Made by a program: the position numbers and the translations under genes. Of a stretch of 20,000 bases of DNA, positions 1 through 18,723 are shown piece after piece. Every line of letters starts with the position of its first letter. Position 1 is the first letter of the stretch. The DNA is taken from IMG/VR virus record IMGVR_UViG_3300025769_000004; one strand, 5' to 3'. The notes under the pieces are model-generated. The model saw only the letters and a program-made list of their open reading frames with translations, searched no databases and had not been told where the DNA came from. The DNA comes from an uncultured virus (IMG/VR IMGVR_UViG_3300025769_000004). Taxonomy: Duplodnaviria > Heunggongvirae > Uroviricota > Caudoviricetes > Crassvirales.

Positions 1-137
1 TCACCATCAAAGATTTTCCTTGCTTGGTTGTGAGCGTATTGCCACTTTTGAGTTTCTGTACCACATTTCTGTGTAGTACCGTAGTATCCGGCTAAGATAT
101 CTTTTGTTATAGCCTCTATTTTTTGTATTTCAGTCAT
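1..137 (-). CDS. hypothetical early protein, truncated by window edge
   Basis: Hand translation MTEIQKIEAITKDILAGYYGTTQKCGTETQKWQYAHNQARKIFDG..., open to the edge; start overlaps the end of 130..243. Confidence 0.7.
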   Translation of the reverse strand, partial: MTEIQKIEAITKDILAGYYGTTQKCGTETQKWQYAHNQARKIFDG

Positions 138-243
138 AATCGTATATTAATTCTTGTATTTCCATAAATAGCATGTCATCTATTTCATCTTTCGTGTACC
201 TATCTTTGTGTAGTTGGTAAGCTACTTCCCATGGACATTTCAT
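130..243 (-). CDS. small hypothetical protein (37 aa)
   Basis: MKCPWEVAYQLHKDRYTKDEIDDMLFMEIQELIYDYD; ATGA overlap with the stop of 240..524. Confidence 0.7.
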   Translation of the reverse strand: MKCPWEVAYQLHKDRYTKDEIDDMLFMEIQELIYDYD

Positions 244-524
244 ATTAATTCTAGTTTGTTTAATAATTCTTGTGACTTTTTCTTTAACATAGCATCTTCA
301 TGAGCTGAATGTAGCATTCTACATAGTAGAGTTTCCATTTCGTGCCATTGTATAGCAAACGATCTTTCATCACTATTTGTTCTAGAAATATCGTAGAAAC
401 TACTATTATTGTATGGATCTCTAAACTTTTTTTCTATATTACTTACAAATGCTTTTACTTCTGTTCTTATTTCTTCAGCTATTTTTTGTTGTAAAGCTTT
501 TTCTATTGCATTAGTACTAGTCAT
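240..524 (-). CDS. hypothetical protein (94 aa)
   Basis: ORF track; ATGA-coupled to neighbours on both sides. Confidence 0.8.
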   Translation of the reverse strand: MTSTNAIEKALQQKIAEEIRTEVKAFVSNIEKKFRDPYNNSSFYDISRTNSDERSFAIQWHEMETLLCRMLHSAHEDAMLKKKSQELLNKLELI

Positions 525-673
525 TTCTTTTTATTCTTTAGTTCGTTAATCACATTTTTAAGCGTGTGAATATCACTTTGACACTTCTTCATTGCTATTT
601 TATTACCCGTGCCTTGGTAAAACTCATTCCATGAGTATAGGTTTTGTAGTTGTTTTATTTTTTTACTTATCAT
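521..673 (-). CDS. small hypothetical protein (50 aa)
   Basis: MISKKIKQLQNLYSWNEFYQGTGNKIAMKKCQSDIHTLKNVINELKNKKK; fills the gap, with an ATGA overlap at 521-524. Confidence 0.7.
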   Translation of the reverse strand: MISKKIKQLQNLYSWNEFYQGTGNKIAMKKCQSDIHTLKNVINELKNKKK

Positions 674-866
674 TTTGTTTTTTATTTAAGTCGTATATTA
701 CTGTTTCAATTATTAAATAGTATGTTTTTGCATTAGAATGAGGTATTTCACCGTATTCATAGTCTTCTTTGATCCACCTTTTCAATGTTTCTAGATTTTT
801 GACTGTTTTGTCATGCTTTTGCACATTACAACTTGTTAATGCTATTATTAGTATTAGTTTCTTCAT
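663..866 (-). CDS. putative lipoprotein (67 aa)
   Basis: MKK + hydrophobic LILIIA + lipobox LTS-C. Confidence 0.65.
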   Translation of the reverse strand: MKKLILIIALTSCNVQKHDKTVKNLETLKRWIKEDYEYGEIPHSNAKTYYLIIETVIYDLNKKQNDK

Positions 867-1018
867 TAAAAGAAAGTTTGTATTATTTCAACAACTACCA
901 TTACCATTGCCGGTATCCATATTGACAAGAATATACCTGTCATACAGTAAGCATATATTTTTAGCATCTTTTCTTCGACTGCTTTATAACAAAACTTTAT
1001 TATTGCTTGTTTAACCAT
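866..1018 (-). CDS. small membrane protein (50 aa)
   Basis: MVKQAIIKFCYKAVEEKMLKIYAYCMTGIFLSIWIPAMVMVVVEIIQTFF; TAATG overlap with the next gene; hydrophobic C-terminal half. Confidence 0.7.
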   Translation of the reverse strand: MVKQAIIKFCYKAVEEKMLKIYAYCMTGIFLSIWIPAMVMVVVEIIQTFF

Positions 1019-1271
1019 TATTATATTGTTTTACTTTGGTTATTAACTCGTGTATTTCTTCGTTTGGAAAGGTAGAATACACCTCGTCTACCTTATTACT
1101 TACAAAATCGTAAGTGAATGCTTTTGTTTTTACACCGAATGGTGACAATATCATATCTCGTTTAGTCCAACCGTAAGGAGATTTTTGTACTCGGTTGATC
1201 ACTAACTTGATGTAGTCGTCATCGAGAATGATGGCGTCGAGATATTTAGTTGATATGTATTTGTTATTCAT
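1011..1271 (-). CDS. hypothetical early protein (86 aa)
   Basis: ORF track; ATG directly follows motif copy 1; FTYD...DEVYSTF segment resembles 1866..2102. Confidence 0.8.
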   Translation of the reverse strand: MNNKYISTKYLDAIILDDDYIKLVINRVQKSPYGWTKRDMILSPFGVKTKAFTYDFVSNKVDEVYSTFPNEEIHELITKVKQYNNG

Positions 1272-1272
1272 A

Positions 1273-1306
1273 TTATATTATCTTTTACTTATTGTATTTA
1301 GTTTGT
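1273..1306 (-). promoter_or_regulatory. repeated putative phage early promoter, copy 1
   Basis: Minus strand ACAAAC-TAAATAC-N11-GATAATATAA. Confidence 0.8.
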
Positions 1307-1399
1307 GATATATGCCCATAGTATTGTTACTACTGCGCATAGTATGAAGTATAACATTACTTCGCCACCTGTTGTTGAAAAATCAGTTTTCTTTTTCAT
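1298..1399 (-). CDS. single-TM peptide (33 aa)
   Basis: MKKKTDFSTTGGEVMLYFILCAVVTILWAYITN; ATGA-coupled; its stop is the TAA of the motif's TAAATAC. Confidence 0.7.
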   Translation of the reverse strand: MKKKTDFSTTGGEVMLYFILCAVVTILWAYITN

Positions 1400-1476
1400 T
1401 TTATTATTTCTCTTATTATATCGATTAGTATTATAGTAGTAATTGTTAATGGTGCTATTGATATTAGTAAAATCAT
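1396..1476 (-). CDS. hydrophobic peptide (26 aa)
   Basis: MILLISIAPLTITTIILIDIIREIIK; ATGA overlaps at both ends. Confidence 0.6.
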   Translation of the reverse strand: MILLISIAPLTITTIILIDIIREIIK

Positions 1477-1667
1477 AGTATTTGAGTTAATATTTCATAG
1501 TGATCTTCTTGTTGAGATTTACTTAGTTCAAGGAATTTACCTTCTACTTTATACCCATGAAGATGGTTTATAATTTGCTGTTCGAGTTCAGCTCTGTTTA
1601 CTGTCTTTTCCATTTCTTTGAATGCTTTCGACCATGACCAATTACTTGGTGAGTTAGGATTATACAT
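1473..1667 (-). CDS. hypothetical protein (64 aa)
   Basis: ORF track; TAACTATG start context. Confidence 0.8.
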   Translation of the reverse strand: MYNPNSPSNWSWSKAFKEMEKTVNRAELEQQIINHLHGYKVEGKFLELSKSQQEDHYEILTQIL

Positions 1668-1669
1668 AG

Positions 1670-1849
1670 TTATTTTTTGTTTTTAGTTATATACTTAGCA
1701 ACTTGTAGTTCAATTGCCATATTTAGTTCATCAAAGAGTTTAGAGTATTTACTTTCATATACATTGTCAAGTGAATATCTTTCTTCACCATTTATAATCA
1801 TCTCATAAATGTCATTATCTTCATCTATTTTTATAGTTATAGTTTTCAT
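1670..1849 (-). CDS. small hypothetical protein (59 aa)
   Basis: MKTITIKIDEDNDIYEMIINGEERYSLDNVYESKYSKLFDELNMAIELQVAKYITKNKK; TAATAACTATGAAAA start context shared with neighbours. Confidence 0.75.
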   Translation of the reverse strand: MKTITIKIDEDNDIYEMIINGEERYSLDNVYESKYSKLFDELNMAIELQVAKYITKNKK

Positions 1850-1865
1850 AGTTATTAGTTTAAGT

Positions 1866-2102
1866 TTAAACTATTTCTGCTAAGTTTCTAGCGAAAGCTG
1901 GAACAGTATTAGAGTTAGTATAACTTTTGTATTCTTGAAAACACTTCATTGATTCAAACTTTTCTTGAAATGTTGAGTAAATCTCATCATGGTCATAAGT
2001 AAAAGTTACATCTTTATTATTAGTGAAAGTTATTATTGCATTCTCGCCGATTAGTGACTTTCTTATTACAAATCTTTTTGTTGTTAAATTATTAGTTTTC
2101 AT
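1866..2102 (-). CDS. hypothetical early protein (78 aa), paralog of 2750..2962
   Basis: 31/70 identities in an ungapped manual alignment with 2750..2962. Confidence 0.9.
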   Translation of the reverse strand: MKTNNLTTKRFVIRKSLIGENAIITFTNNKDVTFTYDHDEIYSTFQEKFESMKCFQEYKSYTNSNTVPAFARNLAEIV

Positions 2103-2142
2103 AGTTATTATATTTATTTATTTATTAATTAGTTTGTTATAT

Positions 2143-2176
2143 TTATATTATCTTTACTTGTTTGTATTTACATTGT
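2143..2176 (-). promoter_or_regulatory. repeated putative phage early promoter, copy 2
   Basis: Minus strand ACAATG-TAAATAC-N11-GATAATATAA. Confidence 0.8.
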
Positions 2177-2275
2177 AATATAGTCTATTACTATTATTAC
2201 ACAAAATACTACTACCATTGCTATTAATACTTCATTTGCAGTTTTTTCTTCTTTTTTATTATTATATTTATTCAT
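2168..2275 (-). CDS. single-TM peptide (35 aa)
   Basis: MNKYNNKKEEKTANEVLIAMVVVFCVIIVIDYITM; resembles 1298..1399; stop lies within the motif. Confidence 0.7.
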   Translation of the reverse strand: MNKYNNKKEEKTANEVLIAMVVVFCVIIVIDYITM

Positions 2276-2384
2276 TTGAATTTAGTTTAAAGGTGTATAT
2301 TTGTTTATTAGTTTAAAAGTTAGTTATAGTTCTACACTTGTTATCTCAATATCTTACATAGATATTAAAATAAATTAGTTATTT

Positions 2385-2439
2385 TAAGTGTGACATTAGC
2401 TAGTTAATATATAATAGTAACAGGCTATTGTCATAGTTT
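2385..2439. repeat. 55-bp imperfect palindrome, copy A (22-bp arms, 11-bp spacer)
   Basis: TAAGTGTGACATTAGCTAGTTA-atatataatag-TAACAGGCTATTGTCATAGTTT. Confidence 0.85.
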
Positions 2440-2683
2440 ACTCTTGATTAGTATTAATTAGTAAATAAGACTCGTCAGACAAGTGACATGAGTGATGAGT
2501 GAATTCTATATTATACTTTATTAATTCTTTAGCTACTTTCATTATATTATGAATAAACGAGTAGACGATGAGATAATCTTCAGTATTATAGTTTAGTCGC
2601 TCGAATAGTTCAGAGTAATCTGGATTATCGATGAGGTATTCGTGGTTTTCATTTAGTATTGGTAATTTAGTTAAATTTATCAT
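2438..2683 (-). CDS. hypothetical early protein (81 aa)
   Basis: ORF track; downstream of motif copy 3. Confidence 0.75.
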   Translation of the reverse strand: MINLTKLPILNENHEYLIDNPDYSELFERLNYNTEDYLIVYSFIHNIMKVAKELIKYNIEFTHHSCHLSDESYLLINTNQE

Positions 2684-2707
2684 TGTTATTAGTTTTTATT
2701 AGTTATA

Positions 2708-2741
2708 TTATATTATCTATTGATAGTCGTATTTACATTGT
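2708..2741 (-). promoter_or_regulatory. repeated putative phage early promoter, copy 3
   Basis: Minus strand ACAATG-TAAATAC-N11-GATAATATAA. Confidence 0.8.
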
Positions 2742-2749
2742 AATTATTA

Positions 2750-2962
2750 TTAAACCCAGTTTGGTAGTTTATTTGAATTCGTATAGTTACCATACTTAAT
2801 AAAGCAATTCATGCTTAGTAATCTTGTTTCATTGTTAGCAAACACTTCATCATGATTGTATGTGAATGATTCGCCTTTTTTGTTAGTGAATGATATGATT
2901 AATGATTTTCCGAGTAATGAGTTTGAGATGATGAATCTTGATTTAGTTATTTGATTTTCCAT
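2750..2962 (-). CDS. hypothetical early protein (70 aa), paralog of 1866..2102
   Basis: Shared RFxI, SLxG, FTNxK, FTYxHDE, SMxCF and YTNSNxxP motifs. Confidence 0.9.
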   Translation of the reverse strand: MENQITKSRFIISNSLLGKSLIISFTNKKGESFTYNHDEVFANNETRLLSMNCFIKYGNYTNSNKLPNWV

Positions 2963-2986
2963 GATTTAGTTATTTAGTTTGTTATA

Positions 2987-3020
2987 TTATATTATCTTAT
3001 TATGTATGTATTTACTTTGT
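2987..3020 (-). promoter_or_regulatory. repeated putative phage early promoter, copy 4
   Basis: Minus strand ACAAAG-TAAATAC-N11-GATAATATAA. Confidence 0.8.
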
Positions 3021-3026
3021 ATTTAT

Positions 3027-3128
3027 TTATAATGCGATTGATAATAAGAATGTTAAGTAAGATATGAATATGATATTCATTGAGATAGAAATTGAATTTA
3101 ATTTGATAGTTGTTATTAGATTTTTCAT
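3027..3128 (-). CDS. hydrophobic peptide (33 aa)
   Basis: MKNLITTIKLNSISISMNIIFISYLTFLLSIAL; TAATAACTATGAAAA start context; downstream of motif copy 5. Confidence 0.65.
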   Translation of the reverse strand: MKNLITTIKLNSISISMNIIFISYLTFLLSIAL

Positions 3129-3170
3129 AGTTATTAGATTTTATTTATTTTGTTATTAATTTTTGTTACA

Positions 3171-3204
3171 TTATATTATCTTTTATACTCTGTATTTACA
3201 TTGT
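3171..3204 (-). promoter_or_regulatory. repeated putative phage early promoter, copy 5
   Basis: Minus strand ACAATG-TAAATAC-N11-GATAATATAA. Confidence 0.8.
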
Positions 3205-3385
3205 TGTTTTTCGAAACATGAATCATAAATGTCAACACAATATTATACTGAAAACGTAAAAGATATTTCATAAAAATTTTAAATGTGGACCGGGCTGGGC
3301 AATTTAATATCGTTTTCTCTAGACATTTTACAATTATATTTTGGGGTGTAGTAAAAAATATCTATATATCTAATTATATTCGCAA

Positions 3386-3440
3386 AAAGTAGGACATTAG
3401 GTTGTTAAATTAGTAGAATAACAGGCTAGTGTCACACTTT
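3386..3440. repeat. 55-bp imperfect palindrome, copy B (22-bp arms, 11-bp spacer)
   Basis: AAAGTAGGACATTAGGTTGTTA-aattagtagaa-TAACAGGCTAGTGTCACACTTT; 1001 bp from copy A. Confidence 0.85.
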
Positions 3441-3467
3441 AAAGTAATTAAAAGCTAATTTAGCATG

Positions 3468-3490
3468 TAAAAAGCGAGTATATCGTGTAA
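3468..3490 (+). promoter_or_regulatory. putative rightward (late-type) promoter
   Basis: TAAAAAGCGAGTATATCGTGTAA; matches 7357..7379 at TAAAWA-x-C-N5-TATCRTGTRA; upstream of the first + strand gene. Confidence 0.45.
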
Positions 3491-3543
3491 ATAACTAATA
3501 ATATACGTATAAACAAAAAACAATTACAAAAAAAAGAGCAATT

Positions 3544-3765
3544 ATGCCAAAAATGACAAGTTATCAAGACAAAGAATCTGCGAAAGATGACTATTCGCAC
3601 GAAAAAAAACTAGCCCATGATGGCAGATATGAATTAGTACATGGAAACGAGGCTGCAGCTAAGAATGATTTTGATCATGCACATGCTTTAAAGAAAGATG
3701 CGCACTATGATCACATGAATAGAATGTCACCTCATCCAATATTAAAACATTCACACAAATATTAA
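3544..3765 (+). CDS. His/Asp-rich small protein (73 aa)
   Basis: ORF track; 10 His; internal two-fold repeat. Confidence 0.8.
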   Translation: MPKMTSYQDKESAKDDYSHEKKLAHDGRYELVHGNEAAAKNDFDHAHALKKDAHYDHMNRMSPHPILKHSHKY

Positions 3766-3841
3766 AAATCAATATGTTTATATTAGTTAAATCTAACTAC
3801 TTCTAAAAATATAAACTTATTAATTCCAAAAAAAATAAAAA

Positions 3842-6010
3842 ATGGATTGTATAGAAAAAAAAATAGATGATGTAATAACCTTAGAACAGGTACAAGAAGC
3901 TAAAGCGGAGTTGGATAATAAATTGGAAGAATTAAACAGCGGTGGTTTACAGCGCCAAGTAAGAGATTCTCAAGATAGATGGGCTAATTCAGTTAGAACG
4001 TTAGGAGTTTGGAAAACAGCTCTAGCTGAAAATCAAAATATTAAAGAAGGTCTTCTGGCTCAAATAGAGGCATTGCAAGCAACTAAAGCTCAATACGAAG
4101 CTGAACTTAAGTCTTTAGAGGCTATACCACCTTCTGAAAGAACAGAAGCTCAAGAAGAGAGAATAACTGAATTACAGGCATTAATAACGGCAACAGAGAA
4201 GGATATACTTTCATTAGAAGTTGATGTTGCTAATATAGATGCTTATTTAGCAGAGATTAATGTTAACATAATTAATACTCAAGCTGAGGTTGATAATGAT
4301 TATAAAATTTATCTAGATAACAAATCACAACTAGACGAGCTTACACTGGAAGTAGAAGCTCTTGAAACAGCTTACTTTGGTCTTAATGCTGGATATCAGT
4401 TATCACAACAAGGGATACAAAACAGAATAGATGGAAATGAAGAAATAAACTTTCCAAATGTATGGGAGACTATATGTGCTTATGGTAGATCAGTAGAAAC
4501 TTTTAATGAGCTTAAAGGTAAGGCTGAAAAAGATTCTATAGTAGCTATTGACGACTTAGCATATTACAGTGTGTTAACAGCAAGACAACCTATACTATTT
4601 AGATATAGTGAAATGATAGTAAGTAGATTTGCTGATATAGACTTAGACAGTCCTCCAGAATTTGAAAATTTCTTTAATAATGTACTAACGAGCGAGGAAA
4701 GAGAAATATTTGGTAATGACGTAAGTGAATTTATAGACGCTTTTGATGGATCAGATCCTGCTGCGCAAGATTTAGCAATTAGTCTCGGTATTAACGAAAA
4801 TCTTATACAATATTGTGGTGGCGATCAATATACTACTCAAAGAGCTACGAAAGATGCTTACTTAAAAGCTAGTAATGAATATGCAGGTGGTGGTTATCTT
4901 TTTGATTTTCTAGTGATTGGGCAGATAACATCAGAAGCTGGATGGAATTCTAGCTACATAGATCCAAGTGATGCAGCTACGTATCCTATAAGCGCTAATG
5001 ATGCAGAAAGAGTAAGAACATATATTGAAAACTGGTGTAATACATATTACATACCTACTTTTTTTGGTACTTTAGCACCATACTCACCTGTTGAGGTTAG
5101 TACGTTAACTTTTCAAAACATAATTAATGGAACATCAGGTTTACCGCCTGGTTTAGAATCTGACCTTCAAAACTATTTAAACCCGATTGTTGGTGATGCT
5201 GGTGTACAGATGGGTCTTTCTAGTTTTATGATTATGTGGTATGAGCAAATCGCAGAACTAACCCCATACTACAATGATGTTGATAGAGCAGATTGGGATA
5301 CTACTATTAGAGCAAAAGGAGATGCAAGAGCTAAGCAAACTAACGAAAGAGTATTGGCTACAGCTCCAGTTACAGGAGGACCTATATTACCTAATGGAGA
5401 TGTTGGTGTTTTAGGATCGTTTAATTACGGTGCTGGAGGTGATCCAGAAGATCCTAATGTAGCTAAAGTGTTAGCTTATTTACCAACTTTACAAAAAAGT
5501 CTAGATGAGTCTGCTGTCACTGCCGCTAATGAAGTTGTAGTTTATACTGATGTAATAAGTAGTATCGCAAACTTAACAAAACACACAGAGGAAATTGCTG
5601 TTTACTTGAAGGCTTATGTTAACATGAATCCAGACAATGAAAATGAAGAAACTGTATTTAACAACGCGGTTGCAGATTCTTCTACTAGTATAGCGAATCC
5701 TTTTAAATGCATAAGCCCAGGTCAGGAAGGTTATTCTGAATGCCAATTGCCATCTCAGACAGCTGAGCCGATAGATATGCTAAATGCTAGTAGAGCTCAT
5801 AAATTTTCTTTAGCAGAAATTAAAGATGAATTAATGGCTGCTGTTTTAAAAGGAGAATGTTGTGCTACTTTTTCACAACCACTTAAATGGGAAACAGTAA
5901 CTGTGTTACTAAATAAAGGTTATAAAATACTTATAAACTTTACACCTAGTGGAATTGGAAACATGATAACTGTTACATGGAACCTTGCAACATCACCAGC
6001 GGAAGCATAA
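3842..6010 (+). CDS. large acidic hypothetical protein with long N-terminal coiled coil (722 aa), possibly virion-associated
   Basis: Long ORF; heptad-like L/E/Q/A-rich first ~200 aa; no recognised family. Confidence 0.8.
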   Translation: MDCIEKKIDDVITLEQVQEAKAELDNKLEELNSGGLQRQVRDSQDRWANSVRTLGVWKTALAENQNIKEGLLAQIEALQATKAQYEAELKSLEAIPPSERTEAQEERITELQALITATEKDILSLEVDVANIDAYLAEINVNIINTQAEVDNDYKIYLDNKSQLDELTLEVEALETAYFGLNAGYQLSQQGIQNRIDGNEEINFPNVWETICAYGRSVETFNELKGKAEKDSIVAIDDLAYYSVLTARQPILFRYSEMIVSRFADIDLDSPPEFENFFNNVLTSEEREIFGNDVSEFIDAFDGSDPAAQDLAISLGINENLIQYCGGDQYTTQRATKDAYLKASNEYAGGGYLFDFLVIGQITSEAGWNSSYIDPSDAATYPISANDAERVRTYIENWCNTYYIPTFFGTLAPYSPVEVSTLTFQNIINGTSGLPPGLESDLQNYLNPIVGDAGVQMGLSSFMIMWYEQIAELTPYYNDVDRADWDTTIRAKGDARAKQTNERVLATAPVTGGPILPNGDVGVLGSFNYGAGGDPEDPNVAKVLAYLPTLQKSLDESAVTAANEVVVYTDVISSIANLTKHTEEIAVYLKAYVNMNPDNENEETVFNNAVADSSTSIANPFKCISPGQEGYSECQLPSQTAEPIDMLNASRAHKFSLAEIKDELMAAVLKGECCATFSQPLKWETVTVLLNKGYKILINFTPSGIGNMITVTWNLATSPAEA

Positions 6011-6033
6011 AACAATAATTAAAAAAATAAACT

Positions 6034-7359
6034 ATGGCAATAATATACACATATCCATTAAAGTCTAGTCCACTTAGTGGCAGTGACTTAATGTTGATAT
6101 CAGATATGACAGCCAGTGATAAGCCAACTAGAAGTGTTACACTACAACAGGTCGCGGATTTTTCTGCGGCCAGTGGTGCTTCTGGTGTTGGGCAGATAGT
6201 TGCTGGAAATAATATAACCTTAACTTCAACAGGGCCTAGTGGAACTGGTATAGTAACTATAAATTCAGAATCAGATTCAGTAACATATACGTTTAATAAC
6301 ACATCGACAATTGATGACATCGCGACACTGTCGTTAAATGGAAGTGATGCAACGGTTAATGCTGTAAATATAAACGCTGGTGCTAATGTATCTATAACAA
6401 ATAACGCAGAAGGAAGTTTTACAATAAATTCTGACAGCCCTCCGTGTTACTCAATAGAAAGTGTTAATTACGAAGAAAATCCAGCTATAAGGTTAAGTCC
6501 TGACAGCGGGGCTTGTCCTGACTCAATAGTTTCTTTTGAAGAAGGTGACAATATAACAATAACTCAATCAAGCAATATTATCACTATTTCAGCTGCAGGT
6601 GGTTCAGGAACTGGAATGACTAGCTGGGATTTAAGAGCTGACAATAGTACAGTATTTGCTGTTGGTGACCAAGGATTAGTTGACATATCTGGAGGAGTAG
6701 ATTTAACAACTTCAGTAGGTACTAGTGGTACTGATAGAATATTAACAATTAACCATGATTCTTTTGGAACTGCAGGAACTTATAACAATATAAATTCTAT
6801 TACTACAAATTCCACTGGACATGTTATAGGTGTTAGTGTTTCTAGTGGTACAAATGGTTTTACACCATTAGACATAGCTCAAGGAAACGCTAGTCTAAAT
6901 GCTGTATCAGAAGGTACTATAATAAATACTTATTGGTTCCAGACAATATCAGATGCAACGTTCGCACTGAACAAAGCTAAAATATATTTACTAGATGGAT
7001 TATCAAACGGATTTGCTTTCGCTATATATGAAGGTGATTTTGCAAACGCGTCTTTAATAAGTGGTAAACAATTTTCTCAAGCAATGATTCCTGGAATTCA
7101 TGAATTTTCAATAATAGGCGAAATACAGGCAAATCTTACTTTAGGCGAAAATTATGTAATAGCTTTATCATTGCCTTTTGCGGAAGAAGGAAATGAAGGA
7201 ATACTAGGGATAAACGATGCTATCGCAAATATTAACTTAGCCGCAACTACTGGCACTAACTACGTAGGTAATCCTTGGCCTAGTGACATTAATTCAGCAT
7301 TTTTTGAAGGTGCAGGAGCTCAGTTAACAGACAAAAGACCTTGTGTACATATTTATTAA
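6034..7359 (+). CDS. putative fibre/virion structural protein (441 aa)
   Basis: N-terminal MAIIYTYP...DLMLISD...TRSVTLQQV; shaft-like repeats AGNNITLT / AGANVSIT / EGDNITIT; GTAGTY...ITTNSTGHV fibre motif; G/S/T/N-rich. Confidence 0.7.
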   Translation: MAIIYTYPLKSSPLSGSDLMLISDMTASDKPTRSVTLQQVADFSAASGASGVGQIVAGNNITLTSTGPSGTGIVTINSESDSVTYTFNNTSTIDDIATLSLNGSDATVNAVNINAGANVSITNNAEGSFTINSDSPPCYSIESVNYEENPAIRLSPDSGACPDSIVSFEEGDNITITQSSNIITISAAGGSGTGMTSWDLRADNSTVFAVGDQGLVDISGGVDLTTSVGTSGTDRILTINHDSFGTAGTYNNINSITTNSTGHVIGVSVSSGTNGFTPLDIAQGNASLNAVSEGTIINTYWFQTISDATFALNKAKIYLLDGLSNGFAFAIYEGDFANASLISGKQFSQAMIPGIHEFSIIGEIQANLTLGENYVIALSLPFAEEGNEGILGINDAIANINLAATTGTNYVGNPWPSDINSAFFEGAGAQLTDKRPCVHIY

Positions 7360-7379
7360 ATAACCGAACTATCATGTGA
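7357..7379 (+). promoter_or_regulatory. putative rightward promoter of the chaperonin cluster
   Basis: TAAATAACCGAACTATCATGTGA, similar to 3468..3490; occupies the gap before 7420. Confidence 0.45.
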
Positions 7380-7419
7380 TAGTATAAATAACCAACGTTA
7401 AACATAAAACCAAAACAAA

Positions 7420-7707
7420 ATGACGTTTTTATACACCAGTAGAGATTTTACTTCTACTACACGACCAGATCAAAGAATGATCAACCTTTGGAAACACATA
7501 ACCACGAAGAGCAATTGGAGAATTGTTCAGTTACCAAATGGATTTTTTCAAACAGAGTATTTGCATCCAGAAGAAGAAGACTGGATCGATGTAACTAGAA
7601 GAGAAACAATGGACGGCGCTGAAGCTGCAATTGATGGATCTATAGAACACTACTCTAAAAAACTTGAATTTTTAAAAGGACCTAAAGTAGTCAAAACATT
7701 CGAGTAA
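7420..7707 (+). CDS. hypothetical protein upstream of groEL (95 aa)
   Basis: ORF track; A-rich leader before the ATG. Confidence 0.85.
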   Translation: MTFLYTSRDFTSTTRPDQRMINLWKHITTKSNWRIVQLPNGFFQTEYLHPEEEDWIDVTRRETMDGAEAAIDGSIEHYSKKLEFLKGPKVVKTFE

Positions 7708-7735
7708 AAAACCAAATCTAATTTAATTAAATCAA

Positions 7736-9277
7736 ATGAACGAAACAATAGTAAAGCATCTAAACTTCGGTGAAGATGCAAAATCCGCTATATTTAGTGG
7801 TATAGAAAAACTCACAAAAGCCGTTAGCTCTACACTAGGAGCTAGCGGTAGATGTGTTATATTAGAAGACTCAGCAGGTAATCCTCAGATTACAAAAGAT
7901 GGTGTAACAGTTGCAGACTCAGTTATATTATTAGACCCAGTTGAAAACATGGGTGCTAAACTTTTAAAAGAAGCAGCCAGAAAAACAGTAAGAGAAGCTG
8001 GTGATGGTACAACTACAGCCACAGTATTGGCCCATTCAATATTAGTTGAATCGTATAAGTCTCTTAAAAATCATAGTCCTAGAGATATAAAAGAAGGTAT
8101 AAACTCAGCTGTAGAAAAAGTAATAAAATATTTAGAAAAAACATCTTCTGAAGTTAAAGGTGATAAAATAGTAGATGTAGCTACTATATCAGCTAATAAT
8201 GATAAGAAACTAGGTGTTACAATTGCTGAGGCATTTAAAAGTGTTAATGATACAGGTATAGTCATAATGGAAACACATGACGATCCTGACACCGTTATAG
8301 AAAAGGTAGATGGAATACAATATGAAGGTGTATTAAAAAATCCTCATTTTATAACAGACAAGGAAAAAGGTGTTGCCGAACTTCAAAACCCGTTAGTTTT
8401 AATAGTTGAAAGTAAAATAGAAAACATTAGAAAAATACAATCTATTTTAGAGTACATTATTAAAAACAAAAAGTCACTATTAATAATTGGCGATGCAGAT
8501 AACCAGGTAATGACAGCTTTAGCAATGAACAAGGTTAAAGGTAATATAAATGTTAATATAATAGATGCTCCAATGTATGGTATTAACAAGAAAGACACTT
8601 TAGAAGATTTAGCATTACTTACAGGAGCGACTGTTATAAATGAACACTTAGGCGATGACTTAGACCTAATAAGTCCTGAACATTTAGGTAACTGCATCAA
8701 ATCTACAACAACAGACAAAGAAACAATTATACAAGTAGACTCAAGTCCTGATGAAGTAGAAGAATTAGTTAGTTCAATAAAAGTGCAAATAAAAGAAACT
8801 AATAATCCTAATTTAAAGGTTAGGCACGAAAAAAGACTAGCTAGATTATTAGCTAAAGTAGCAATAGTTAAAGTAGGAGCAAACTCTAGTGTAGAGTTAA
8901 AAGAAAAAAAGGATAGAGTAGAAGACGCTATTTGCGCTACAAAAGCCGCTATTAAAGAAGGCATAGTGCCAGGAGGTGGGATAGCATTACTTAATGCATC
9001 TCAAAATATTGTTGCAAAAACAGATACAGAACAAATATTATTAGATGCTATTAAAGCTCCTTTTAATGTTATATTGCACAATGCTGGTATATTAGATTAT
9101 GAAGAGTCTAATATAAAAGGTAAAGGATTAAATGTGGTTACAGGGAAAACGGTAAATATGGTAAAGTCCGGAATAATAGATCCTTTATTGGTCACTAAAT
9201 GTGCTTTGCGGAATGCGGCTTCTGTAGCTACAACTATAATATCTACTGATTGTGTAATTAATAATTTAAGAGCATGA
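7736..9277 (+). CDS. groEL: phage-encoded chaperonin GroEL (Cpn60)
   Basis: ITKDGVTVA, GDGTTTATVLA, RVEDA..ATKAA..EGIVPGGG and GIIDP motifs; lacks the C-terminal GGM tail. Confidence 0.98.
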   Translation: MNETIVKHLNFGEDAKSAIFSGIEKLTKAVSSTLGASGRCVILEDSAGNPQITKDGVTVADSVILLDPVENMGAKLLKEAARKTVREAGDGTTTATVLAHSILVESYKSLKNHSPRDIKEGINSAVEKVIKYLEKTSSEVKGDKIVDVATISANNDKKLGVTIAEAFKSVNDTGIVIMETHDDPDTVIEKVDGIQYEGVLKNPHFITDKEKGVAELQNPLVLIVESKIENIRKIQSILEYIIKNKKSLLIIGDADNQVMTALAMNKVKGNINVNIIDAPMYGINKKDTLEDLALLTGATVINEHLGDDLDLISPEHLGNCIKSTTTDKETIIQVDSSPDEVEELVSSIKVQIKETNNPNLKVRHEKRLARLLAKVAIVKVGANSSVELKEKKDRVEDAICATKAAIKEGIVPGGGIALLNASQNIVAKTDTEQILLDAIKAPFNVILHNAGILDYEESNIKGKGLNVVTGKTVNMVKSGIIDPLLVTKCALRNAASVATTIISTDCVINNLRA

Positions 9278-10175: not shown

Positions 10176-10622
10176 TTGAGAAAACCCACAGCTTCTGAAC
10201 TAAAAGATCTGCATTTATTAAAACATTACAGGATTGTACGTAAATGGGCGTGCAAAACCTGTGATATTAAAGATGCAGACCTTGAGTTATTAATATACTT
10301 AGACGCTATAGAGCACTTTACAAAACAAGATTTTAAGACAGGTACTTATTCATATAGCTGGGATAACAGGCGTTGGAATAGGTTGTTAAAAGAAGGTTGG
10401 ATTATAGTTTGGAGAGAAAGAAATAGAACTACTCAAAAGTACAATATATACAAAGTTTCATTTAAGTGCAAGCAGTTGATAAGCCGAATGTACAGAATAA
10501 TGCTAGGTGAAGAAGATATACCAACAACAGAGCGCAGTAACATAATAATGAAGAAAAAAACATATATAGATAAAGTTCTTTCTCACTCTATATTAAATTT
10601 AAACAACGATAAAAATAGATGA
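10176..10622 (+). CDS. putative winged-helix (MarR-like) DNA-binding protein
   Basis: TTG start abutting the upstream stop; pattern DLELLIYL...RLLKEGWI...R...YKVSFKCKQLI is MarR-like. Confidence 0.6.
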   Translation: MRKPTASELKDLHLLKHYRIVRKWACKTCDIKDADLELLIYLDAIEHFTKQDFKTGTYSYSWDNRRWNRLLKEGWIIVWRERNRTTQKYNIYKVSFKCKQLISRMYRIMLGEEDIPTTERSNIIMKKKTYIDKVLSHSILNLNNDKNR

Positions 10623-10623
10623 T

Positions 10624-10977
10624 ATGGATCCAATGACAGCCATGATGGCAATTCAAGGAGGAATAGCAGCGGGAAAAGCTGTAGAAGAAGGAGTAAATAA
10701 GCAAATACTTGGTTCAGAGACTGGTGGTAGTAATGTAAACAAGCCAAAGGAAGAAATGAAAAAATCTCAAACCGTTTCATTTTCTGATCCTAACAAAGAG
10801 TTTAGCCCAAATAATTATAGTAGACCAATGACAAGTGGTACATCTTCAATAGAGCCAAGTGTTGATTCTAATTATAATCAAAAATTTAATGACTTAAGTA
10901 TGGGTACAATGGATAATACGTCTGTTCCAGAAAACGATACTATAAATGACGGTAGTATCTTCACTAAAAATGTTTAA
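10624..10977 (+). CDS. hypothetical protein (117 aa), likely disordered
   Basis: ORF track; MDPMTAMMAIQGGIAAG N-terminus; tiles the operon. Confidence 0.75.
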   Translation: MDPMTAMMAIQGGIAAGKAVEEGVNKQILGSETGGSNVNKPKEEMKKSQTVSFSDPNKEFSPNNYSRPMTSGTSSIEPSVDSNYNQKFNDLSMGTMDNTSVPENDTINDGSIFTKNV

Positions 10978-10994
10978 TAATAAAACTAAATAAA

Positions 10995-11168
10995 ATGCCA
11001 AGTTACGGAGAAAATCAAAAGCCAGCAGGATATGCTAAAAAATGTGGATGTGGACCAGTAGGTACAAGAACAATGATGAGCAATAAGTCCAACGTTACAC
11101 CAACGTTAAAATCAATTGACAACATACCTTACAAAGGTAACGCTGTATTAAACGCAAATAGATCTTAA
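10995..11168 (+). CDS. small basic protein with CGC motif (57 aa)
   Basis: MPSYGENQKPAGYAKKCGCGPVGTRTMMSNKSNVTPTLKSIDNIPYKGNAVLNANRS; A-rich leader. Confidence 0.7.
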   Translation: MPSYGENQKPAGYAKKCGCGPVGTRTMMSNKSNVTPTLKSIDNIPYKGNAVLNANRS

Positions 11169-11169
11169 A

Positions 11170-11340
11170 GTGGGCGTTGATGATTTAAAGTTATATTGTT
11201 TTAATATAACTTCTTTCACAATTGCAAGTTTAGATTGGTTAGAACCTGTGTTAAAAATAACTTTATTGTTAGTTACTATTGGCTACACTGTTAATAAATG
11301 GTGGGCTATGAAAAAAAATAACGATGAGAGCGATAAATAA
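11170..11340 (+). CDS. putative holin / small membrane protein (56 aa, GTG start)
   Basis: MGVDDLKLYCFNITSFTIASLDWLEPVLKITLLLVTIGYTVNKWWAMKKNNDESDK; hydrophobic with a charged tail; overlaps the endolysin start. Confidence 0.6.
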   Translation: MGVDDLKLYCFNITSFTIASLDWLEPVLKITLLLVTIGYTVNKWWAMKKNNDESDK

Positions 11341-11737
11341 GATTATAGTTCACTGCTCTGCTACTCGCGAAGGTCAAGACGTTTCTGTAGAAACAATCAG
11401 GAAATGGCATGTAGAGGGCAGAGGTTGGACTGACATAGGCTATCATTTCTACATTGACATACATGGTGATATATATAAAGGTAGAGATATAGCTAAAATT
11501 GGAGCTCACACTAAGGGGTATAATAGAAATTCTATAGGAATATGCTATGCTGGAGGCGTTGAGAGTGATGGTAAGACTCCAAAAGATACTAGATATGATT
11601 GTCAAAAAGAAAGTCTCTTAGCGGTGCTAAGAACACTAAAGGCGATGTATCCAAATGCTGAGATACATTCTCATAATGATTTTGCTAATAAAGCATGTCC
11701 TAGTTTTAACGCTACAGAAGAATATAAACATTTATGA
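11324..11737 (+). CDS. N-acetylmuramoyl-L-alanine amidase endolysin (Amidase_2, T7 lysozyme-like)
   Basis: IIVHCSAT, GWTDIGYHF, GAHTKGYN..SIGICY.GG and H.D..NKACPSF zinc-ligand motifs. Confidence 0.95.
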   Translation: MRAINKIIVHCSATREGQDVSVETIRKWHVEGRGWTDIGYHFYIDIHGDIYKGRDIAKIGAHTKGYNRNSIGICYAGGVESDGKTPKDTRYDCQKESLLAVLRTLKAMYPNAEIHSHNDFANKACPSFNATEEYKHL

Positions 11738-18118: not shown

Positions 18119-18723
18119 TGAAGTCTTTATATAAGTTTATTATATCTCCTTTAAATGAAAGATATGATAATACTATAAAAGTGGAGGGAGTTGATTTAAT
18201 AACAAATACTAGCGTTGAAGATTACCAATCAGTTAGTAAAAAAGCTATTGTTATAGAAACTCCTTCAGCTTTTGAAACGAAGATTAAGAAGGGAGATCAT
18301 GTTATTGTTCATCATAATATATTTAGAAGATATTATGATATGAAGAACAGGGAGAAAAACAGTGGATCATACTTCGCTGAAGATAAATATTTCTGTACTA
18401 ATGAACAAATATATTTAATTAAAAGAGAAGATACCTACGAGACTAATTTAAACTACTGCTTTGTTAAGCCTGTTTTAAACACTGATGTTTTAAGCATTAA
18501 TAAAGAATTACCATTAAGAGGTATTGTAAAATATTCTAATAAATATCTATCAAATAAAAATATAATAAAAGATACATTAATAAGTTTTAATCCAAATAGT
18601 GAATTTGAATTTATACTTGATGAGGAAAAATTATATTGTATGAAATCTAATAATATCGTATTAACTCATGAATACCAAGGAAACGAAATTGCAAATAATC
18701 CAAGCTGGACAAAAAGCCGTTGA
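18118..18723 (+). CDS. protein with two tandem GroES-like domains (201 aa)
   Basis: Domain 1: MKSLYKFIISP...AIVIETP...IKKGDHVIV. Domain 2: NYCFVKPV...RGIVKY...FEFILDEEKLYCMKSNNIV. Confidence 0.65.
   Translation: MKSLYKFIISPLNERYDNTIKVEGVDLITNTSVEDYQSVSKKAIVIETPSAFETKIKKGDHVIVHHNIFRRYYDMKNREKNSGSYFAEDKYFCTNEQIYLIKREDTYETNLNYCFVKPVLNTDVLSINKELPLRGIVKYSNKYLSNKNIIKDTLISFNPNSEFEFILDEEKLYCMKSNNIVLTHEYQGNEIANNPSWTKSR

Follow-up and report, generated by a model that had tools for sequence, protein, structure and literature searches.

Palindromic sites at the early/late switch of a marine tailed phage and their probable partner, a helix-turn-helix protein

Two 55-bp imperfect palindromes, sites A and B, flank the divergent early/late switch in a 20,000-nucleotide stretch of an uncultured Crassvirales virus (IMG/VR record IMGVR_UViG_3300025769_000004; the whole stretch is referred to as the window). 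Related phages carry a third copy, C, over the start of a gene for a helix-turn-helix (HTH) protein of ~207 amino acids (aa), and in one clade the recognition helix and the site have changed together. By sequence comparison, A, B and C are with high confidence binding sites of this protein; the conservation of the site at variable spacing, copy C and the helix/site co-change argue for this and against limits of a terminal repeat or recombination sites. The sites are a real feature; with the protein they would be best read as an operator/origin-initiator pair. An earlier note, made from the window alone, had proposed that A and B are terminase sites bounding a ~1-kb direct terminal repeat; that proposal found no support, given the varying spacing, the loci with a single site, the third copy and the link of the site to the helix.

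Sites A and B in the window

Site A (2385..2439) and site B (3386..3440), neither assigned to a strand, are the same site with the same polarity. Their 22-11-22 geometry and the start-to-start distance of 1001 bp were confirmed. The arms follow TGTGACA-NNN-G-N5-TA, and the 11-bp spacer is AT-rich and polar. Site A lies directly 3' of the stop of an 81-aa early open reading frame (ORF; 2438..2683, minus strand), the stop codon touching its outer edge. Site B adjoins a conserved element, switch element S, and is upstream of the first late gene. The two sites were identical at 41 of 55 positions and at 5 of 11 in the spacer. The earlier description of polar sites in the same orientation with differing AT-rich spacers was confirmed. 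Arm-to-arm complementarity was 16/22 and 17/22. A 16-nt half-site gave four matches at ≤3 mismatches (0.64 expected; four were reached in 1 of 200 shuffles), and a half-site matrix built from relatives detected no palindromes in the window other than these two, and none in 20 shuffles of a 70-kb genome. No terminator-like site was found in positions 1-8000, and no Rfam match in positions 1-6000.

Conservation and anatomy of the site

Relatives were fetched using a 70-aa early ORF (2750..2962, minus strand), which is conserved clade-wide and has no PHROG family, yielding 76 loci. Loci are numbered L and genomes G; five relatives are near-complete (96-100%). The closest record to the window starts at window position 1965, and DNA of positions 1200-4200 gave no genuine relative among annotated phages. 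The scan of relatives that the earlier note had called for showed the site to be conserved: 47 of the 76 loci have one site, 26 have two and 3 have none. The A-B distance was 473-1649 bp in 22 pairs, so the figure of exactly 1001 bp holds for the window genome and its 99.95% identical neighbour (G001) but is not conserved. Two loci (L060 6206-6360, L061 6208-6362) have copies 103 bp apart, and two others have copies ~4 kb apart.

Across 83 distinct sites, the near-invariant positions of each arm were TGACA, a G three bases inward of it and an inner TA. The spacer was AT-rich, polar and 9-14 bp long, beginning with CTA on the early strand. Watson-Crick pairing between the arms at variable positions did not exceed the expectation for independent columns, either in these sites or in a second comparison (784 observed against 819 expected of 1160; 932 against 951 of 1460). 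Each arm is thus conserved as sequence, which indicates a protein-bound DNA site and upholds the earlier preference for such a polar site over a hairpin.

A self-built profile placed element S at the divergent switch of 120 out of 129 related loci, always on the same strand (loci not deduplicated; the seeds of the profile are among its hits). A strict S pattern had matched only 17 of the 129 and was replaced by the profile. On the late side of S, site B keeps a fixed distance of 72-112 bp from the S midpoint (73 loci); on the early side, the distance of site A is 164-2111 bp. Of the 120 loci, 43 carry A alone, 32 carry B alone and 31 carry the two together; 10 have B with a truncated early side, 1 has no site, and 3 have no site but are truncated. 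Single-site loci with no truncation flagged therefore number 75 of 120. Either A or B alone suffices; a switch copy is nearly always kept, and its position is free.

A third copy at the start of an HTH gene

The near-complete relatives contain a third site, C, with polarity opposite to that of A and B. In all five, the ATG of a 206-212-aa gene is within the gene-proximal arm of C. The window phage's own HTH gene would lie outside the window; in relatives the gene is 4.5-9.6 kb down the early arm, and the nearest switch copy was 4.5-9.6 kb upstream of C in 49 loci. Eighty loci of the gene were inspected: the site was flagged over the start in 75, at -60 or -74 in 4, and was weak by eye in 1, so that a palindrome lies over or next to the gene's own start in 79 of 80. 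The four displaced copies indicate that C is kept when uncoupled from codons. No site was found downstream of the HTH gene start in 513,342 bases from these loci. Among 78 more distant loci, C was found by the matrix in 53 and as a variant site in 6, and most of the others were degenerate by eye. Of the two arms of C, the upstream one tends to be weaker; in one large subgroup (L140-L199) this arm is inside a small inverted repeat, GGGG...CCCC, which may form an RNA hairpin or a terminator that overlaps the site.

The HTH gene heads the replication operon, followed in the annotated genome G002 by genes for a sigma-70-family protein, ERF, exonuclease VIII and a T7-type primase-helicase. The protein consists of an N-terminal helical domain, a basic linker and a C-terminal three-helix HTH that resembles TetR-type regulators. 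The family is large (7966 of 8000 scored clusters at 90% identity passed). Apart from weak HTH matches, no PHROG or Pfam family was assigned. Foldseek searches of two predicted models against the PDB gave no match at E 0.001, PDB sequence searches with the protein gave nothing significant, and no homologs were found in annotated phages or plasmids. Distant homologs encoded after GroES in another phage group lacked the site at all 33 of their loci, and a de novo palindrome scan of 12 of these loci and Calle_1 gave no shared site. In L212-L244 the distant homolog is directly 3' of GroES and faces a convergent winged HTH (wHTH) gene, with no TGTGACA site nearby.

Joint change of recognition helix and site

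R186-T187-R190 is present in the recognition helix of 136 out of 146 distinct proteins, whose gene-proximal arms read TGAC (128), CGAC (5) or TGCC (2), with one mis-picked. One clade of five proteins has lost both arginines. In all five, both arms of C have TGTAAA and the inner TAG is kept. In this lineage the standard TGTGACA has become TGTAAA in both arms of B as well as of C: in G011 a second variant copy occupies position B, with a weak S match on one side and the first late gene on the other. The variant palindrome had seven exact matches in IMG/VR, all in the six contigs of the variant clade, and long branches with an unchanged helix kept TGACA. In L323 (G011 49230-49260), two GTGAC remnants just before the variant switch site are possibly a decayed site of the old type.

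The co-change has its limits. It occurred once, on a long branch in a quick tree; 66 additional metagenome proteins carried the standard helix without exception and added no second event; and K186 goes with GGAC in 2 of 5 cases.

Other candidate binders were considered. The wHTH protein (10176..10622, plus strand), which the earlier note had put forward, was rejected as the likely binder: homologs are encoded in Calle_1 and MW202828, whole records with no sites and no homolog of the HTH gene, and in 32 of 33 loci of the site-less post-GroES group. This rejection rests on site-less genomes, the record of the variant genome G011 ending in GroEL. G010, whose wHTH is 79% identical to that of the window, has A, B, C and the HTH gene. 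The phage sigma factor was rejected on one locus, the variant L245, which keeps the site and has no ORF of sigma length after the HTH gene (10748-11474, ~730 bp without a long ORF where relatives have the sigma-70-family gene). For the TerS candidate at 18668, a PHROG scan gave no family.

Proposed mechanism

Each arm would be bound by one protomer, the two standing head to head. Within an arm the HTH would contact the outer TGTGACA; contacts to the inner G and TA would probably come from the linker and the N-terminal domain. Occupancy of C would repress the protein's own operon (sigma factor, ERF, exonuclease, primase-helicase); autorepression is suggested by the position of C over the gene's own start. 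A and/or B would most likely be the replication origin, where paired protomers might melt the AT-rich spacer in the way that ColE2 Rep unwinds its origin with its PriCT-HTH module. The phage primase-helicase would then load on the opened spacer and a host polymerase copy the genome. We infer binding, autorepression, PriCT identity, melting and origin function from the comparisons, and consider the combination of autorepression at C with an origin at A/B about evenly balanced for and against. The best guess of an origin at A/B rests on a domain that is weakly PriCT-like and on the five near-complete genomes, none of which had a PolA or PolB match (the only polymerase families searched). Further circumstantial points are that relatives without the HTH gene have other modules (PolA in Calle_1; BT4734-like, PriCT-1 and ATPase in MW202828) and that a switch copy is nearly always retained at no set position. 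The GC skew turns on the early side of A, ~0.5 kb from it. Fourfold-site skews before C are unlike those after it but follow gene length, and skews do not decide the origin.

A more specific version is put forward tentatively, at somewhat less than even chances. The protein would be a stand-alone, primase-less PriCT-like-HTH initiator that sits head to head on a palindromic origin, melts its 10-13-bp spacer and loads a T7-type primase-helicase for a host polymerase, with autorepression at the start codon and a movable origin copy beside the separate element S. It would be a new kind of phage initiator, spread through a very large group of uncultured marine phages.

Comparison with known systems

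The Reps of ColE2-P9 and RepA-PFP, class C theta replicons, are built as AEP primase-PriCT-1-HTH. The phage protein shares with ColE2-type Reps a C-terminal HTH that is probably sequence-specific, judging from the helix/site co-change, but has no primase domain: no primase family was among the Pfam matches listed for the ~207-aa proteins, and no longer homolog was found among the 8000 scored candidates, a weak test. RepA-PFP origins are reported to lie at the rep gene's 3' end or beyond it (PMC5304414). In the phages, by contrast, a two-arm palindrome marks the gene's 5' end and has remote copies, and the phage operon, unlike ColE2-P9 and RepA-PFP, encodes a separate T7-type primase-helicase. 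Lacking a primase domain and having a 5' site, the phage protein is outside the ColE2 Rep family; by analogy, it may work like the DNA-binding half of ColE2 Rep.

Plasmid and phage initiators that repress themselves include the Rep_3/RepE type, with inverted-repeat operators, and lambda O-type modules. Like them, the phages have an initiator-like gene at the head of a recombination/replication operon, and the inverted repeat that covers the gene's start recurs elsewhere. In contrast to them, there are no tandem iterons and every copy is the same palindrome, and none of the Pfam matches listed was to such initiators. Autoregulated TetR-type repressors also have palindromic operators; the phage HTH differs in being C-terminal, the site in being ~50 bp long with a variable 9-14-bp spacer, and the N-terminal domain in having no clear known fold. 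No description of the sites or the protein was found in the literature covered, which took in few subscription papers and included PMC5862659, PMC4538821, PMC5703833, PMC8776804, PMC5332604 and PMC5304414.

Alternative explanations

The same protein could act on the same sites as a transcription regulator only, repressing its operon at C and switching early to late transcription at B/A by activation upstream of the first late promoter, by a roadblock or by an A-B loop over the strongest early promoters. We regard this as possible though on the unlikely side. It would fit the overlap of C with the start codon, the TetR-like HTH and the three early-promoter-like repeats enclosed by A and B in the window; in many loci, judged by eye, a recurring TGTNATAAT-like motif also follows closely on B and stands shortly before the first late start codon. 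Moreover, hhalign of the HTH protein against ColE2-type Reps gave no detectable profile similarity, which leaves the PriCT identity unproven. Against regulation alone, 43 of 120 loci are without B and 32 untruncated loci are without A, which makes both a fixed late-activator position and an A-B loop dispensable; the position of A drifts over 2 kb, and the site is of unusual length, its AT-rich spacer being variable. It is improbable that C, at the start of the initiator gene as in lambda O, is the main origin, with A and B auxiliary or titrating. C is nearly universal, genes from the switch to C differ in fourfold-site skews from late and post-C genes, and the keto fraction is higher downstream in 77 of 85 loci. 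However, the skew shift starts ~2 kb before C and follows gene length, the upstream arm is in most cases the weaker, and the cumulative GC-skew minima of four genomes are near the switch, though confounded with gene strand.

For the proposal that A and B are terminase recognition/cut sites delimiting a ~1-kb direct terminal repeat, the location is plausible for a genome end, the sites flanking the divergent switch and the first early genes, and short direct terminal repeats are predicted for Gundel, a podovirus of the related Pachyviridae, in a source that gives the ends of Calle as not determined (PMC8776804). It is nevertheless very improbable: both sites are present in only 31 of 120 loci, their spacing varies and a third copy is 4.5-9.6 kb away, the site tracks the HTH gene and not the terminase module, and the single-copy S is a better candidate for a terminus, which may yet lie somewhere in this region. 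A terminal-repeat pair, or a recombining one, should be kept together, and the frequent occurrence of A only or B only disfavours both. Overlaps at the contig ends of G002 and G003 were rejected as genome ends; they are in different places and look like assembly overlaps. Least probable, and largely refuted, are recombination sites (A-B excision, B-C inversion) and an RNA or single-stranded DNA hairpin such as an RNase III site. The orientations (A-B direct, B-C inverted), an arm length that suits both and the variability of the early region would agree with them. The spacer, however, varies in length and sequence, and Phage_integrase (PF00589) or Resolvase (PF00239) matched in none of the five near-complete genomes, though a host enzyme could act instead; the earlier argument against a tyrosine recombinase was thereby borne out. 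For a hairpin, arm pairing is at or below the independent-column level and there is no Rfam match. Of the alternatives first listed with the terminus proposal, operator and origin are those that survive.

The work names a probable DNA target for a large family of phage proteins that had no annotation, and the helix/site variant is a ready-made natural specificity swap. An origin at A/B, if true, would explain how replication starts in widespread marine GroEL-carrying phages without PolA or PolB, and would mean that a PriCT-HTH unwinding module works apart from its primase. If the protein is a regulator only, the sites would be the likely early/late control circuit of that marine phage group, of more ordinary interest.

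Phage context

The window encodes GroEL, two GroES, an amidase and a holin and belongs to a tailed phage. Its wHTH is 31% identical to those of Cellulophaga phi38:1 and Calle_1; phi38:1 (Pervagoviridae) is a distant relative, and the window is from a marine phage. The terminase of the relative G002 is 47% identical to those of Flavobacterium elemo phages. GroEL and a sigma-70 gene are reported for 'group 2' putative Flavobacteriaceae phages (PMC5332604). The window would fit this marine group, on the basis of its GroEL and the wHTH and terminase likenesses; host and membership are both putative. GroEL/GroES, portal, terminase and wHTH homologs are common to the window and its relatives, the Pervagoviridae (phi38:1, Calle_1) and group 2. 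Calle_1 differs from the window's clade: it encodes PolA and a serine recombinase, and both the HTH gene and the sites are absent.

Switch element and early region

Element S (3274..3374, minus strand; self-built nhmmer model) is a polar conserved non-coding element of ~100 bp. On the minus strand it is AT-rich, with C-runs, an A-tract, a T-tract and CCAGCCC. Each of the five near-complete genomes had one significant match; the switch regions of Calle_1 and MW202828 had weak matches that were not significant. S may be a packaging/terminus signal, for which it is a better candidate than the palindromes, part of an origin, or a promoter.

The sequence TAAATAC-N11-GATAATATA is repeated on the minus strand at 3172..3198 (between A and B), at 2988..3014 (upstream of the 70-aa ORF) and at 2709..2735 (upstream of the 81-aa ORF). 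The earlier statement that three early-type promoters and the strand switch are enclosed by A and B holds for these repeats and the switch; two further repeats are outside (2144-2170 and 1274-1300, minus strand). Their position suggests a promoter role, and the motif (five copies) is unlike what we take to be the Bacteroidetes promoter consensus. The first late-strand ORF after B (3544..3765, plus strand; 73 aa) has no PHROG family. In several loci (L064, L065, L067, L088, L097, others) a TGTNATAAT-like motif is found ~6 nt before the first late ATG, after B on the late strand, which suggests leaderless late transcripts. At C, the spacing from spacer end to ATG is similar to that of this motif before the late ATG. 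Paralogous early ORFs of 70-78 aa (1866-2102 and 2750-2962, minus strand) have no known family, are found clade-wide and are often duplicated near the switch, and site A often directly follows one of them.
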